Shown: in pieces, positions 1,697-51,355 of the stretch
Position numbering within the stretch: the first letter of the stretch is position 1
Layout of the letters: each line of letters opens with the position of its first letter
IMG/VR virus record: IMGVR_UViG_2778260992_000008
Coordinates: 1 to 56,203 of that record
Strand: one strand, 5' to 3'
Origin: a virus
Taxonomy: Duplodnaviria; Heunggongvirae; Uroviricota; Caudoviricetes
Length of the DNA stretch: 56,203 bases
Position numbers and translations under genes: made by a program
Notes under the pieces: model-generated
The model's input: the letters and a program-made list of their open reading frames with translations, nothing else
Database searches by the model: none
What the model was told of the DNA's origin: nothing

Positions 1697-1903
1697 TTAC
1701 ACAATCCGCATTGTGTTTCGTAATTCCCCGCGCAGCGCCCGCAATGCATCGCGCATTGGCACAAAAACCCGGTTAAATTTTACGTGTTTATATTTACGCA
1801 TCAGTGGCGGTGTATACACCATTGCGTCGTATACTTCCCACGGATAATAAACGCGCGTATCGTCAACAAACGTTTCAACTGAATAAAAGATTACACGTCT
1901 CAT
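1697..1903 (-). CDS. hypothetical protein
   Basis: 68-aa ORF in operon context. Confidence 0.35.
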   Translation of the reverse strand: MRRVIFYSVETFVDDTRVYYPWEVYDAMVYTPPLMRKYKHVKFNRVFVPMRDALRALRGELRNTMRIV

Positions 1904-2457
1904 AATTCTAACCCCGTTTCCCCGTTAAGTTTTTCGATCTCAAATACTGGTTTATCCGGTAGTAGGCCGTTATTTTTCCGGTATTCGTTCAGGCGGCTGT
2001 CAAAGTCAAACGCGAGATCATTCGCGTGACCGAAGCGACCAGGTTTAAACAGTGAGTAAAAATTAAGGCCGTGTTTATTGGTATCTATGCAAAGCGTTTC
2101 ATCCAGCACCATTAAACGCAGCGTGCGCGAAAGGTAATTCCACGGAATGCCAGTTTCCGCGCTAATATCTCTCATTCGCTTTCTAACGTTGTAGTCAGTA
2201 AATAACGCGGCTACACGCTCGCGTCGTTGTTCGTATAAATATTTAATTCGATAGCCCAGCAAGCGGCGGCGCGGGCCAAAATATGTATACACCCGCTCAA
2301 CCAGATTAGTGTCGATCAGGTGTTTAACTGTTTCCGGCAAGCATCCGGCTTCGTCGTATTCCGCTGATAATCCTGTTTTCTGGCGTAGCTGGTGCATTGT
2401 TGCGATGCCATCAAGTTCAAGGATATTGATAATTTTTGCTTCAAGTTCAATGCTCAT
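1900..2457 (-). CDS. hypothetical protein downstream of helicase gene
   Basis: ORF 1900-2493; ATG at 2457 preceded by GAGG chosen over the upstream non-ATG start. Confidence 0.4.
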   Translation of the reverse strand: MSIELEAKIINILELDGIATMHQLRQKTGLSAEYDEAGCLPETVKHLIDTNLVERVYTYFGPRRRLLGYRIKYLYEQRRERVAALFTDYNVRKRMRDISAETGIPWNYLSRTLRLMVLDETLCIDTNKHGLNFYSLFKPGRFGHANDLAFDFDSRLNEYRKNNGLLPDKPVFEIEKLNGETGLEL

Positions 2458-2536
2458 TGTTTTTCGCCTCGTTTTAAGCGCGAAAACAGCCACCAGAAAG
2501 CGGTCAACTTTCCGGTAAGCCGTTTGCTCAAGTTAA

Positions 2537-6558: not shown

Positions 6559-7668
6559 TCAAAGAGCGCCAGCGCGTGTATCACGTAGCGTTTTTGGTTT
6601 AAGCAGGAAATCAAGTGTCGCAGTAAAGCCATTGCCGAAGTAAAAATCTGAAGCCGTGTTTTTGAACGCCTCAAAGTAAGCAATAAAGCCAGTGATGCTT
6701 TTGTCTTTCAGGTAGTCAGTGAACGCATAGATCTTGCGTTCCAAATCCCGATCCAGTTCGGCAGGTGGTAACAGGCCGTCGAATGTCTGGTTAAATGCTG
6801 ATACCACGACAGCAGCGTTAACAGTAGCTGTAACTCTTCGCCATTGTTCAGCATCAGCCAGATACCCATCAAACTTAGTTACCCGGCAAATGTTGATAGG
6901 CTTAGGTACTCCACTCCGGCTACGCCATTGCGTTAAAGCCCATTCAATTACTAATGTGATCTCATCCTCCGTATATGCCTTACGTGTTTTTGTTTCTGTC
7001 AGTAGTTCGATGAATGGCTTCGTATCACGACATTTGCATCCTGCTTTTTCGTTGTAGAAAGCTAAGCAACGGTAAGCCGCCTCGCTTATCTGAAAGTCAC
7101 CGTCCTGATTGACCGTTTTTTGTCCATTTTCGCTAATACACGAAGTGTATATATCTTTTTCTATTTCTTCTTCTACTTCTTCTTCTACTTCTAATCCATG
7201 GCTATGACATGGTTGTGCCATGGCTGCATCATGGTTGTGCCATGGTTTTTCTTTTTCTGTATCTTGTGAATTATTTACTTCCACTAAAGGATTATCTAAC
7301 TTTTTATTTTTTTTGACGTTTAGCCTTTTAATTGCTTCCCTAAATTCGCTTTTTGATGAAGCCATTGATTGATCAAGTCTTTTTGCTAACGACAAGCATC
7401 TTACAACGCCATGCGAGCAATCGAACAAGCCAACTTCGATGAAGTATCTCATCATTTCTTCTACACGTTTCGGACTTGATCCGACATTACGGGCAATAAT
7501 TCTTGCGTCGTGTTTTAGTTCGAATGTCAGATTATGTTGATCTACTTCGTAGGCTATTAACTCGATGCAGTACCAATAAAGGCCGTATCCTTCCAGACCA
7601 TAATCAAGCAAAACGTTTTGAAGTTTTTCATCGCGGTTCGCATCGCTATCATGCTTAAACCACTTCAT
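6559..7668 (-). CDS. replication initiation / replisome organiser protein
   Basis: N-terminus MKWFKHDSDANRDEKLQNVLLDYGLEGYGLYWYCIELIA resembles phage replisome-organiser N-terminal domains; strong RBS AGGAGAAAAGCAA-ATG; first gene of minus-strand arm. Confidence 0.7.
   Translation of the reverse strand: MKWFKHDSDANRDEKLQNVLLDYGLEGYGLYWYCIELIAYEVDQHNLTFELKHDARIIARNVGSSPKRVEEMMRYFIEVGLFDCSHGVVRCLSLAKRLDQSMASSKSEFREAIKRLNVKKNKKLDNPLVEVNNSQDTEKEKPWHNHDAAMAQPCHSHGLEVEEEVEEEIEKDIYTSCISENGQKTVNQDGDFQISEAAYRCLAFYNEKAGCKCRDTKPFIELLTETKTRKAYTEDEITLVIEWALTQWRSRSGVPKPINICRVTKFDGYLADAEQWRRVTATVNAAVVVSAFNQTFDGLLPPAELDRDLERKIYAFTDYLKDKSITGFIAYFEAFKNTASDFYFGNGFTATLDFLLKPKTLRDTRAGAL
7160..7330. repeat. iteron-like direct repeats plus AT-rich tract inside the replication gene (candidate origin)
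   Basis: CATGGTTGTGCCATGG at 7208-7223 and 7230-7245; CTTCTTCTACTT x2 upstream; AT-rich run 7246-7330. Confidence 0.45.
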
Positions 7669-7975
7669 TTGCTTTTCTCCTATGGTTAAAATGAACGCGC
7701 GGGCGGGTATCCCATTAGCATTAGATAGCAGTGATTGACCGCTTAACAGATCCCGCCGTTGCGTGATATTTGTTTTTCGCTTCGCAGCGACACCGGGTTT
7801 TTAAAGAGCTTTAAGGTATGCGCCTTTTTGTGCTATTCCCTTATCTTTTTTCTTGCATCCTTGCAAGTCTGGCTTTACCTTGTCTGCAAGTTTACAGAAT
7901 GGCATTTACAGGTCAAGACTTGAAAAATACATTTTGTGACTTGCATCAAACTTTTTGGGGCGATAGGGTAGCGAC

Positions 7976-8623
7976 ATGAAAACAAAATGGTATGACTTAG
8001 CAAAACAACTCATGCGGGCGCAAGGTATGAGCCAGGATTCATTGGCGGACCTGATGGGGATCACGAAAGGCGGCTTATCGCACTGGCTGAACGGTCGCCG
8101 TGAGCCAAATCTTAATGATATTGCGCGGATCATGCGGGCGCTTGGTCGTCGGCAGTTTACGGTCACACATGATGGGATGGTTATTGATGATTCACTTTCT
8201 AATACACTGCCGGGAGCGCCACCGCTCGACGTAGGGCGTTATCCGGTGATTGACTGGAAAGACGCAGGAAACTACATGGAAGAAGCAAAACGCGCATCAT
8301 TACCGCACGTTAACACTAGCGTGATTTGTTCGGATGATAGTTATTGGCTGGTTGCAAAAGGTGAATCGATGAACGCGCCGCAAGGATTGAGCATCCCGGC
8401 GGGAACGATGATACTTGTTGATCCACACGCGCCAGCTATTGACGGCAAACTGGTTATAGCCCAATTGGAGGAAGGGCAAACGCCGACGTTTAAACAGTTG
8501 ATTATTGATGGAGGTCAAAGGCTTTTACGCTCGCTTAATCCGTTGTATCCACCAATCCCGCTAAATCCTGAATCAAAAATTATTGGCGTGGTGGTGGACG
8601 CGAAGATCGTAAACCTGCCATAA
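7976..8623 (+). CDS. cI-like repressor, HTH plus S24 LexA-type peptidase domain
   Basis: N-terminal HTH (SQDSLADLMGITKGGLSHWLNGRR); C-terminal GESM Ser and FKQL Lys dyad; divergent from replication genes. Confidence 0.85.
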   Translation: MKTKWYDLAKQLMRAQGMSQDSLADLMGITKGGLSHWLNGRREPNLNDIARIMRALGRRQFTVTHDGMVIDDSLSNTLPGAPPLDVGRYPVIDWKDAGNYMEEAKRASLPHVNTSVICSDDSYWLVAKGESMNAPQGLSIPAGTMILVDPHAPAIDGKLVIAQLEEGQTPTFKQLIIDGGQRLLRSLNPLYPPIPLNPESKIIGVVVDAKIVNLP

Positions 8624-8732: not shown

Positions 8733-8775
8733 GTATACAAAATGGATTGACTCGACATATCACAGGGCGTATATT
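8733..8775 (+). promoter_or_regulatory. sigma70-like early promoter with upstream ACAAAATGG element
   Basis: TTGACT (8747-8752), 17-nt spacer, TATATT (8770-8775); GTATACAAAATGGA immediately upstream. Confidence 0.55.
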
Positions 8776-9098
8776 GCGAATCAAAGGAAGGAAGCAGGAA
8801 ACAAAAAGCACCTTCCAGGCACTTTAAAAATCAGGCTTAACACCTTGTCAACCGTGGAGTAACTCCCCGATGTGGGACCGAAAGCGGCACTGATAACAAG
8901 GCGCATGGGGTGTTTAAAGCGTTACATCCCCCACGAAACCGCACGCAAGGCGACGAGTCAGATCACTTGGATTGAGTGGTGTCACACCGGAAACGGCGAT
9001 GATTGCGGGATTAGTTGAACGATGTTAAGCCATTCTCTTTAACAATCTGGTCGCTACTGAAATGTAGCAAACATGATTTTAACTAAGGAGAAAAGATT

Positions 9099-9389
9099 AT
9101 GAATGCGAAGATCATTTACGGTAACTGTGAGAGCAAATTAAATGCACGGAAGCGCCGCCGGATGAAGCGGGCAGCCGAACAAGACGAAGGCCCGCACATA
9201 CAGAAGATTGATAAAGTGGAAAAAGCTATTCGCTTTGCAAATGAGGAAAGATGCAAATCAAATAGCGTTAAAGAACGTCGCAAGGGCGCGACAAAATGGT
9301 ATCAGGAAAATGAAAGCGGCAACTACTTCCACGCAACGCAGCCGCGCCAGCTTGGGGAGATCCCGTTAGATAAAGTTCGATACCATTAA
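9099..9389 (+). CDS. hypothetical basic protein (96 aa)
   Basis: Strong RBS AAGGAGAAAAGATT-ATG; first ORF after a ~320-nt leader. Confidence 0.5.
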   Translation: MNAKIIYGNCESKLNARKRRRMKRAAEQDEGPHIQKIDKVEKAIRFANEERCKSNSVKERRKGATKWYQENESGNYFHATQPRQLGEIPLDKVRYH

Positions 9390-9419
9390 TACAAAATGTA
9401 TACAATCGGAGGTGACATT

Positions 9420-9539
9420 ATGGTTATTCAGGCGCTTCAATTCAAACTGGCAGTAGCGGAAATGCTTCACGATGCCGAAATGTGGAGCGCCGCGAATAAA
9501 GCCTTATACGTAGTGTTAACAGCGAAGGAGATTAAATAG
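9420..9539 (+). CDS. small hypothetical protein (39 aa)
   Basis: RBS GGAGGTGA; stop overlaps the GTG start of erf. Confidence 0.3.
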   Translation: MVIQALQFKLAVAEMLHDAEMWSAANKALYVVLTAKEIK

Positions 9540-12823: not shown

Positions 12824-12903
12824 TAAATATACATTTTGTATTGTCCCGCTGTATCCGTTTTGTAAACTGAAGTTAGAAGGTATACAGAACGGAGGGCGGG
12901 AAG

Positions 12904-14376: not shown

Positions 14377-14915
14377 ATGAAAAATGATTACGGCGGAAGC
14401 CATACGCCAAAAGAAATAAAGGACTTATGGCAAACGCCAAAACCCGTTTTTAGAGGAATGGATCGTGAATTCGAATTCGTCGCGGATGTGGCGGCAAACA
14501 AGGCAAACGCATTAGTTCCGCGATATATAACCGAAGAGATGGACACACTCCATTATCCGTGGGGAGCGGTAGCAATGCCTGGTGAGTATGTCTGGCTTAA
14601 TCCGCCATATTCGAATCCGGGCCATTCGTAGATAAGGCAGCGATGGAACATCACCGAAATCATATTGGCTGTGTAATGTTGTTGCCCGCTGATATCTCTG
14701 TTAACTGGTTTATGAACGGCCTGGAGACGGCAAGCGAATGTCGCTTAATCACGCGCGGGCGGCTGGCGTTTATTAATGCTGCGACGGGTAAGTCAGCAAG
14801 CGGAAACAATAAAGGGAGCTTGTTCTTGATCTGGCATCCACGGTGCAAACATGAATGTATTTTCACGCAGATAACACGTAAAGAGCTATACGCAAGAGGT
14901 GCAAATAATGACTAA
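14377..14915 (+). pseudogene. phage Dam-type DNA N6-adenine methyltransferase, reading frame disrupted
   Basis: ORF 14377-14631 has WQTP...WLNPPYS then stops; downstream frame 14643-14915 carries the VMLLPADIS...WF segment; a 1-nt frame change near 14610-14630 would join them. Confidence 0.55.
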
Positions 14916-16677: not shown

Positions 16678-16699
16678 TGTTTACAAAATGGCGTCATTG

Positions 16700-16715
16700 T
16701 GTGATGAAGGTCACA
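16700..16715. promoter_or_regulatory. perfect CRP-type palindrome TGTGA-N6-TCACA
   Basis: TGTGATGAAGGTCACA, ~18 nt upstream of candidate -35 TTGTTC (16733-16738) and -10 TATACT (16755-16760). Confidence 0.4.
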
Positions 16716-16840
16716 TAATGGCGCTTTTTACTTTGTTCGGGTGTATCCATTTTGTATACTGCAATCAAACGAAATGCTCTTTAAAAATCCGGCCCCGCTG
16801 AAATGCGGAAACACATCACCTAACAGAATGAGATCAAATT

Positions 16841-22944: not shown

Positions 22945-22968
22945 AACGTGATCTACCCCGCAAAGTTT

Positions 22969-23008
22969 ACAAAATGGCATTGTTCAGGCAGTGCCATTTT
23001 GTTATAAA
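22969..23008 (+). promoter_or_regulatory. inverted repeat ACAAAATGGCA/TGCCATTTTGT overlapping a sigma70-like promoter
   Basis: 11-nt arms at 22969-22979 and 22992-23002; TTGTTC (22980-22985), 17-nt spacer, TATAAA (23003-23008). Confidence 0.5.
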
Positions 23009-38228: not shown

Positions 38229-38276
38229 AAAACACCCCGTTTGCCTTGAATTACTAACCACTTCCTATAGCTTCTT

Positions 38277-38316
38277 TATACAAAATGGAGTCGTTAAAGC
38301 AAATCCATTTTGTATA
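38277..38316. promoter_or_regulatory. perfect inverted repeat TATACAAAATGGA-N14-TCCATTTTGTATA with divergent promoter elements
   Basis: 13-nt arms at 38277-38289 and 38304-38316; TATAAA-like hexamers at both ends, one per strand. Confidence 0.55.
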
Positions 38317-38354
38317 AAATAGTTACACAGATCACAAAAACGGAGATCAACGCT

Positions 38355-42126: not shown

Positions 42127-42295
42127 CTTGGGCCTCCTTTGTTGGTACTGCTTTTCTTCTTGCTTTCTGTATACATCTTGTTGCGTCCTGTGTGAAGCCA
42201 TTTTGTAAACTGGTTATAATTCTTGTGATGAAGTTCTCATTTTTCGCGTAGAAGCGCGTAAAGATGTACACAAAATGTAACTTATAGGGGGAATT

Positions 42296-43195: not shown

Positions 43196-43444
43196 CTATA
43201 AGTTATCACGCAGATAATTAACGCCCTTGTCAGTGACGAATGAATGATTAACCTGGTTTTCATCCGTCATAATAATGAATAACTTTTCCTGTAAGTATTT
43301 TGCTTTTGGGTACAGCGTTAAACAGACCTGATACAGTATCCCGCGCTCAATCAGCAAATCAATAAATTCGTGCTCATGATAACCGATGAGACGGGCGGCC
43401 TGTTTCAACGTGTACACATAATCACCGTGATTGCGCCGCCCCAT
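43196..43444 (-). CDS. hypothetical protein (82 aa), possibly DNA-binding
   Basis: ORF in track; YTLKQAARLIGYHEHEFIDLLIERGIL has HTH-like character. Confidence 0.4.
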   Translation of the reverse strand: MGRRNHGDYVYTLKQAARLIGYHEHEFIDLLIERGILYQVCLTLYPKAKYLQEKLFIIMTDENQVNHSFVTDKGVNYLRDNL

Positions 43445-51196: not shown

Positions 51197-51355
51197 TGTC
51201 TTACCCTCCGTTGTTTCGTTGGTTGTAGTATCCACAAACTGTATTTTCTCAACATTGATATAAATCAACAAATACATTTTGTATAAACCAAAAATGTAAC
51301 ATAGATCACAAAATGGTAGAATTATTCCGTTAATTAACATAATGGAGTCATTGCA

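Follow-up and report, generated by a model that had tools for sequence, protein, structure and literature searches.

Cro is commonly regarded as one half of the lambda-type switch and integral to it, and an immunity region without a recognisable cro gene raises the question of how its early operon is controlled. Such a region lies at 7669-7975 of the tailed-phage sequence analysed here (Caudoviricetes, IMG/VR record IMGVR_UViG_2778260992_000008; the whole stretch of 56,203 nt is called the window below), where a cI-like repressor gene on the plus strand and a gene for a replication initiator (rep) on the minus strand diverge from a gap of exactly 307 bp. An earlier examination of the letters and open reading frames (ORFs) of this DNA (hereafter the sequence-only reading) had described this arrangement with coordinates that all hold, had found ahead of rep only one minus-strand ORF, without a convincing helix-turn-helix (HTH) motif, and had proposed either that a very small or non-canonical Cro is used or that the replication operon is repressed directly. 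Of these alternatives direct repression fits the evidence best, and the small Cro does not survive. Our analysis suggests that the 307-bp region is probably a lambda-type immunity and early-control region with the Cro arm missing, in which the replication operon would be repressed directly by cI and then expressed with the help of N-type antitermination.

The repressor side of the switch is orthodox, with an HTH and S24 repressor of the cI type diverging from a predicted early lytic promoter, whereas the first gene of the divergent operon is rep and not a small second repressor. A profile hidden Markov model (HMM) of the Cro partners found in outgroup phages, run against the six frames of the whole window, matched only the HTH of cI itself; a tblastn search with the Cro of a sister clade (see below) gave the same single match and no cro remnant, by which a Cro relocated elsewhere in the window was rejected; and a Pfam scan of 67 early-region ORFs yielded no HTH_3/Cro family among the best 25 of the 46 families matched. 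By these methods (HMM, tblastn, Pfam) the absence of a recognisable cro gene, as the sequence-only reading had it, extends from the gap to the entire 56-kb window.

The window is a member of the published mEp021-like 'mEpimmI' group of temperate coliphages. Its 7669-7975 region aligns at ~86-91% identity with seven isolates (mEp021, mEp010, mEp013, mEp044, mEp515, mEp554 and MagusPhagus), and prophages in 35 of 5,426 complete E. coli genomes match it as well. With the mEp021/mEpimmI isolates the window shares the CI-like repressor (91-93% identity to mEp515 and mEp021; 100% to several E. coli prophages of the group), the intergenic region (about 90-91%), nutL, a homologue of the antiterminator Gp17 (9099-9389), boxA/boxB elements at 7778-7809 (-), 9034-9067 (+) and 16775-16808 (+), and the core synteny: 34 of 39 tested proteins of the STEC308 prophage are encoded full-length and in order, including all the core genes tested (replication, lysis, packaging, head, tail). 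Among the 39 proteins, a winged-helix protein, one accessory protein and the integrase (whose gene is off the window) have no match in the window, and the tape-measure and Dam-like proteins match only partially. The gene for the latter, a DNA adenine methyltransferase (14377-14915), is frameshifted near 14616-14622, with the N-terminal 82 aa in frame 1 and the remainder in frame 3, and could be a pseudogene or the product of a sequencing error. Each of the isolates has an 81-84-aa winged-helix gene (gp14 in mEp021, gp17 in mEp515) between the leader and rep, and the window has none.

According to Negrete-Mendez et al. 2025 (PMC11893012), the mEpimmI phages are Nus-dependent and non-lambdoid, form a single immunity group and are as common in the human gut as the lambdoid phages; their CI-like repressor is functional, they encode the N-like antiterminator Gp17 and have three nut sites, and in mEp021, where antitermination depends on Gp17, nutL lies upstream of the repressor gene. 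The function of the mEp021 repressor homologue, Rep021, has been demonstrated (PMC11893012), and we take repressor function and Gp17/nut antitermination from this literature, while gene content, homologies, conservation, deletion structure and distribution come from the present analysis. The mEpimmI paper (PMC11893012) makes no mention of Cro, gp14, operators or promoters.

Comparison with related repressors indicates that cro has been lost. The 307-bp gap is unusually long, as homologous repressors in four outgroup contexts are found ~92-124 bp from a divergent Cro-like gene. The nearest repressor homologue outside the group is 56% identical overall, and an 18-aa stretch of its HTH_3 domain (GITKGGLSHWLNGRREPN), taken to include the DNA-reading helix, is identical to that of the window. 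This homologue belongs to an apparently undescribed sister clade of mEp021-like phages (loci L064-L067, from the Logan assemblies SRR23253275, ERR15663680, SRR16327198 and ERR9714990), which is syntenic with the window (DnaB helicase, a 370-aa gene, an N-like gene, erf, ssb); there a 75-aa HTH_3 Cro is encoded 124 bp from cI and is followed by boxA (CGCTCTTTAACAA), boxB (ATTGCTGAAAAGCAAT) and the replication genes, i.e. in the lambda order PR-cro-nutR; none of 50,697 deposited phage genomes holds a close match to this Cro. The sister clade thus has Cro and no long leader, yet the same operator-like dyads and a homologous early promoter: its operator region aligns with the window from the cI start through the -35 and -10 elements to about +1 of the early promoter and then diverges. 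The Citrobacter, Serratia and metagenome-phage contexts have a 74-81-aa HTH_3 partner ~100 bp from cI (those from Serratia and the metagenome phage also carry a CP76, cII-type, gene), and a classical HTH_3 Cro accompanies this repressor family in 4/4 outgroup contexts. Because all four keep Cro and the window holds no remnant of it, the homologies indicate that cro was lost, as a derived trait, from the mEpimmI immunity module in its entirety, and that the deletion of the winged-helix gene was a second, later loss.

We infer that the gap consists of a lambda-like operator/promoter region of ~93 bp (7883-7975) and an untranslated leader of ~213 bp (7669-7882). The promoter scan places the early promoter of the replication operon (P_E, Table 1) with a predicted start near 7882; its hexamers are kept across 13 distinct intergenic sequences, in which the spacer varies, and it is homologous to the promoter ahead of cro in the sister clade. 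For the repressor gene we predict a promoter whose -10 element ends 6 nt before the A of the ATG (7976); in the corresponding position the sister clade reads TTGAAT-17-TAGGAT-6 nt-ATG, and its spacer is unrelated in sequence. The cI promoter called by the scan, TTTACA-17-TACATT (7905-7933), was rejected since its -10 element is not kept in the sister clade, whereas TTGCAT/TAGGGT is. The preferred promoter would be weak and activator-dependent, and transcription would start at the A of the initiation codon, which would give a leaderless cI mRNA. The P_RM promoter of lambda is likewise a weak, activator-dependent promoter from which a leaderless cI mRNA is made.

The predicted leader contains nutL, located 74-105 nt downstream of the predicted P_E start. 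It has a boxA resembling CGCTCTTTAACAA, followed on the transcribed strand by a boxB hairpin with a purine-rich loop (RNA CGC-UGCGAA-GCG), and resembles nutR1 (9034-9067) and nutR2 (16775-16808). The antitermination by Gp17 is reportedly the subject of a study by Valencia-Toxqui et al. from 2023. Between nutL and the ribosome-binding site (RBS) an inverted repeat of ~70 nt forms an imperfect hairpin in the predicted fold, with a conserved basal stem and an apical part that varies in one relative (L022). The whole leader fold is not more stable than shuffled sequences (z = -0.29), and Rfam identified no RNA family at E <= 1 between 7500 and 9200. An intrinsic terminator was not adopted for this hairpin, as its U-tract is offset and not kept in relatives (TCATTTT vs TCACTCT) and the terminator scan made no call. 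Elsewhere in the window, nutR2 (boxA 16775-16787, boxB 16795-16808) is preceded by a promoter-like TTGTTC-16-TATACT (16734-16760) that overlaps a perfect copy of the dispersed 13-mer discussed below, and may belong to a third repressor-controlled early transcription unit.

Candidate operators were found in the 93-bp part of the gap. Homologous repressors from the Serratia and metagenome phages have three ATACA-N3-YGTAT dyads in their operator regions, and the most likely binding sites of the window repressor are 13-bp dyads with the pattern ATACA-TTT-TGTAT. There are two plausible dyads (O_A and O_B) and a weak third (O_C) in the window as opposed to three clear ones in the outgroups; O_A is invariant in 12 of 13 distinct intergenic sequences, and both O_A and O_B have counterparts in the sister clade (TACCAATTCGTAA and CGCCATTTTGTGA, respectively).

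These elements can be combined into a mechanism in which Cro would take no part. cI would bind both dyads: from O_A, which lies over the -10 element and spacer of the strong leftward P_E, it would repress the replication operon, and from O_B, whose centre at -43 relative to the cI promoter corresponds to where lambda cI sits when it activates P_RM, it would probably stimulate its own leaderless transcript. When repression fails, or is not yet set up, P_E would transcribe the leader; Gp17, a product of the other early promoter (8747-8775), would load with the host Nus factors at nutL and render RNA polymerase termination-resistant, and Rep, a 372-aa protein and the DnaB helicase would then be expressed. 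A cI promoter that is inactive without cI would make a Cro-type shut-off of cI less necessary. Morons with antirepressor-type proteins, e.g. a KilAC-domain gene (43199-43444), are also present in the window.

The main rival to this reading concerns the winged-helix gene. Every annotated relative has a 78-85-aa HTH gene between the conserved gap and rep, and the alignment shows it to be missing from the window with the two ATG codons as the exact limits: what precedes the ATG of the lost gene is joined directly to the ATG of rep, so that Rep is now translated from the RBS and spacer of the lost gene. In E. coli O157:H7 LSU61, of the relatives with the gene the one closest to the window (Rep ~96% identical), both endpoints of the deletion read ATGA, a 4-bp microhomology. 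A relocated copy was rejected, since an HMM of the gene found nothing in the six frames of the window. The gene is present in 7/7 phage isolates, in 37 of the 38 IMG/VR contigs with the nutL leader and in all 17 such metagenome contigs (once truncated, once elongated); it is annotated in each complete E. coli match that spans the position, and the junction of the window occurs in none of the 34 matching genomes. A 28-mer across this junction has no match in the genome, viral and metagenome collections. The window is thus, in addition to the group-wide loss of cro, a minority deletion variant. The same variant exists among E. coli assemblies, for instance GCA_032761715.1 and GCA_018683215.1, where the exact 369-aa Rep is encoded on 24 contigs and the exact cI on 94: the ten listed loci of the exact-Rep contigs all have the gene-less layout, and their block of rep plus gap is near-identical (0-10 differences in 1,418 nt), while their flanks diverge at no fewer than three different points with different neighbour genes. 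An independent loss is seen in L037 (IMGVR_UViG_3300045988_060283), where a Rep of the HTH_36 type directly follows the leader, and truncation has left 30 codons of the gene in L018 and 50 in L080.

In sequence the lost gene resembles replication initiators. Pfam assigns it to HTH_36, with weak matches to DnaD_N and Phage_rep_O, and all three types of the gene match, over positions ~1-72, only the PHROGs 'replication initiation protein', 'O-like' and 'DnaD-like' (4617, 270, 1032, 8540, 391), with no transcription-regulation PHROG matched by any of them. The Rep proteins of the group are mosaics of a Lin1244_N or HTH_36 N-terminal domain, a variable linker and a conserved C-terminal part of ~170 aa, and from its first residue onwards type 1 of the small protein runs colinear with the N-terminal end of the HTH_36-type Rep (BLASTP 8e-15). 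A tblastn search of 50,697 phage genomes placed the matches at the N-terminal ends of O genes from Stx and lambdoid phages. The three types, with just 29-44% identity to one another, are found next to identical cI genes and gaps of 93-100% identity, and they track the type of rep and not the immunity; the gene therefore belongs to the replication module and not to the immunity module. On these homologies the gene amounts to the N-terminal domain of an O-like initiator encoded on its own. The linker-coding region of rep itself contains tandem repeats at 7150-7260 (CATGGTTGTGCCATGG and CTTCTTCTACTTC, each twice), which, because the variable initiator linker is where lambda O carries its origin iterons, may by analogy be the replication origin.

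A competing explanation, which we consider possible and rather doubtful, starts from the Cro position and the winged-helix fold of this gene: the protein of the siblings would be a functional analogue of Cro, and the window a natural 'cro-deletion', i.e. a locked-in or crippled prophage that is mainly inherited vertically. The gene is retained in >95% of the sampled genomes, with all 7 plaque-forming isolates among them, which shows that it is under selection and leaves room for a regulatory function like that of Cro; no phage isolate, no contig from IMG/VR or the metagenomes and none of the 5,426 complete E. coli genomes has the window-type deletion, which may therefore mark a crippled prophage; and the Dam-like accessory gene of the window is frameshifted. 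These observations weigh against control by cI without Cro, and so do properties of the proposed operators: the window dyads are imperfect (O_A agrees at 6/10 and O_B at 8/10 dyad positions), and with a free 3-nt spacer and two mismatches allowed the dyad pattern occurs at chance level (29 found vs 25.6 expected), its T-tract version alone being enriched. The start sites, the operators and the leaderless cI message, furthermore, are deduced from sequence comparison only. A Cro role of the winged-helix protein is in turn difficult to reconcile with its homology to initiator N-terminal domains instead of transcription regulators, with the service of three such divergent families to the same cI and the same operators, and with its repeated loss or truncation (the window type, L037, L018, L080). 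It is also encoded behind nutL and the long leader and would not be made immediately, and window-type loci exist in at least three mosaic backgrounds with intact genes; we infer the variant to be viable. Direct repression by cI followed by antitermination remains the reading that we prefer.

The second alternative concerns the cI promoter. The sequence-only reading had pointed to the motif ACATTTTGT (7929-7937) and to a CRP-like pair of half-sites, TGTGA-N6-TCAAA, both of which exist at these positions. It is unlikely, in our opinion, that the pair is a true CRP-cAMP site that ties cI transcription to host physiology, even though it agrees with the CRP core at 9/10 positions, is kept within the group, and belongs to a class of CRP-like dyads that is over-represented in the window (6 found vs 1.45 expected from shuffles). 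The pair is centred at about -33.5 relative to the predicted cI start, and not at a position from which CRP activates (-41.5 or -61.5); the second half-site coincides with the -35 hexamer region and reads TCAAT instead of TCAAA in the sister clade; and the first half belongs to a dyad that recurs across the genome, with most other CRP-like matches adjoining copies of this dyad. Both elements are better explained as one operator-like dyad (O_B, which contains ACATTTTGT and the TGTGA half) plus the -35 element of cI, a more economical interpretation by the sequence evidence than CRP.

ACATTTTGT lies within the 13-mer CCATTTTGTAWAC, which occurs 9 times in the window at <=1 mismatch as compared to ~0.07 expected by simple base odds. 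About 15 strong copies were identified, essentially all intergenic; they accompany early promoters and, in the late region, the junctions of accessory-gene clusters that run in reverse orientation. Some are perfect dyads (ATACATTTTGTAT at 12829 and 51272, ATACAAAATGTAT at 9389), and some form inverted pairs (ACAAAATGG-N16-CCATTTTGT). In mEp021, of which 87.7% is coding, 13 of 19 copies are intergenic and occupy syntenic positions, and phages whose repressors are homologous have operator regions filled with related dyads. A plain sigma-70 promoter was rejected as the identity of the 13-mer because only P_E has a usable -35 element. A search for operators in the form of 6+6 palindromes returned CTTGCA/TGCAAG-type repeats in the gap, which are not common to the other early promoters or the outgroups, and these were also rejected. 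The dispersed copies may be repressor sites with genome-wide reach, and we put forward tentatively, as one possibility among others, that mEpimmI is a natural lambda-like, N/Nus-dependent family with a single repressor, no Cro and ~15 conserved intergenic dyads by which that repressor would act throughout the genome.

The weakest alternative, a very small or non-canonical Cro encoded inside the gap by the 34-codon ORF or another short frame, can practically be dismissed: the ORF does begin with ATG on the correct strand, but it has no HTH or Pfam match, its start codon is missing in 3 of the intergenic sequences of 12 distinct relatives, most of the others have in-frame stops or frameshifts (with 1-bp indels within the stretch), it is intact only in L014 and L017, and its ATG lies upstream of both the conserved -10 element of P_E (7889-7894) and the predicted +1, so that it is not a gene, while the lone ATG of the predicted leader opens just 5 codons.

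Table 1. Features of the immunity region and of related elements in the window (positions are those of the window)
Feature	Position	Strand	Description
cI-like repressor gene	7976-8623	+	215 aa; Pfam HTH_3 and Peptidase_S24; PHROG 'transcriptional repressor'
Replication initiator gene (rep)	6559-7668	-	369 aa; Pfam Lin1244_N, variable linker, conserved C-terminal ~170 aa; first gene of the operon here
Deletion junction	7666-7681	-	RBS and spacer of the lost gene fused to rep ATG 7668-7666
RBS	7681-7677	-	AGGAG
Imperfect hairpin	7695-7764	-	~70 nt; between nutL and RBS
nutL	7778-7809	-	boxA GCTCTTTAAAAA 7809-7798, 8-nt spacer, boxB CGCTGCGAAGCG 7789-7778
34-codon ORF	7801-7905	-	ATG at 7905; no Pfam hit; not a gene
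Predicted early promoter P_E	7889-7916	-	-35 TTGACC 7916-7911, 16-nt spacer, -10 TAAACT 7894-7889
Operator-like dyad O_A	7892-7904	-	TGCCATTCTGTAA; overlaps P_E spacer and -10
Operator-like dyad O_B	7927-7939	+	ATACATTTTGTGA; abuts the -35 of the cI promoter
'CRP-like' TGTGA-N6-TCAAA	7935-7950	+	O_B right half and -35 region of the cI promoter
Predicted P_RM-like cI promoter	7941-7969	+	-35 TTGCAT 7941-7946, 17-nt spacer, -10 TAGGGT 7964-7969
Weak candidate operator O_C	7980-7992		within the first cI codons
Other early promoter	8747-8775		proposed source of the Gp17 transcript
Gp17 homologue, N-like antiterminator	9099-9389	+	PHROG 'anti-termination protein N-like' 1.2e-8; weak Pfam N_peptide; 97.9% identical to STEC308 prophage protein
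Strong copies of CCATTTTGTAWAC	3975, 5258, 8733, 9389, 12829-12892, 16679-16759, 22965-23006, 38276-38317, 42198-42278, 43992, 51272-51316

Two further ORFs of the window deserve mention. A 197-aa protein encoded at the distal end of the replication operon (1900-2493, minus strand) and kept in relatives matches the PHROG 'MarR family regulator' (2e-7) with a weak N-terminal winged helix, and is possibly a further regulator. Directly after the N-like gene, a 47-aa ORF (9396-9539, plus strand) weakly resembles lambda Kil (Pfam E = 3e-4, which does not reach the curated cut-off).

On this reading the immunity region is of the lambda type minus cro, with the nut site moved into a long leader, and the absence of cro had gone unnoted in the published group. 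The transcribed leader with its nutL, the deletion of the winged-helix gene, the initiator-like and not Cro-like nature of that gene, and the group-wide loss of Cro relative to the sister clade are points absent from the sequence-only reading. The annotation of mEp021 gp14 as a 'MarR-like regulator' is corrected here, as the protein resembles the N-terminal domain of a replication initiator, and its gene has been lost repeatedly. The mEpimmI phages and their cro-bearing sister clade with homologous operators constitute a natural experiment, in which the dispensability of Cro is directly testable, and the analysis yields concrete candidate promoters and operators for the group.

Compared with lambda, the window has the same kind of repressor (HTH plus a LexA-like S24 domain), divergent promoters that would share operators, a cI mRNA predicted to be leaderless and to come from a weak promoter, with a candidate operator centred near -42/-43, an arginine-rich N-like antiterminator that acts at boxA/boxB, replication genes downstream of the early promoter, and the recombination genes erf and ssb downstream of the N-like gene. 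It differs in that cro is absent and the nut site lies in a 213-nt untranslated leader before the first gene and not after cro, in having two clear operator candidates instead of three evenly spaced ones, in its three nut sites and in its Lin1244_N-type initiator. A further difference from lambda is that the published repressor has no Ala-Gly cleavage site and that lysogens are not UV-inducible (PMC11893012). As for single-repressor designs, the window resembles mycobacteriophage L5, which is not known to have a Cro, in its single repressor and in having many repressor-type sites of ~13 bp in intergenic regions. In L5, which belongs to an unrelated phage family, the stoperators of the gp71 repressor are asymmetric and oriented with transcription, whereas the putative sites of the window are intergenic and occur in both orientations, which does not agree with the L5 type, and their best copies are dyads, often in inverted pairs. 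The leader of the lambda N gene has nutL, then an RNase III-sensitive hairpin, then the RBS of N. The leader of the window precedes the replication genes and not the antiterminator gene, and the likeness is one of order and scale only: in both, a promoter is followed after ~70-100 nt by boxA/boxB, a large hairpin and the RBS, within a leader of roughly 215-220 nt.

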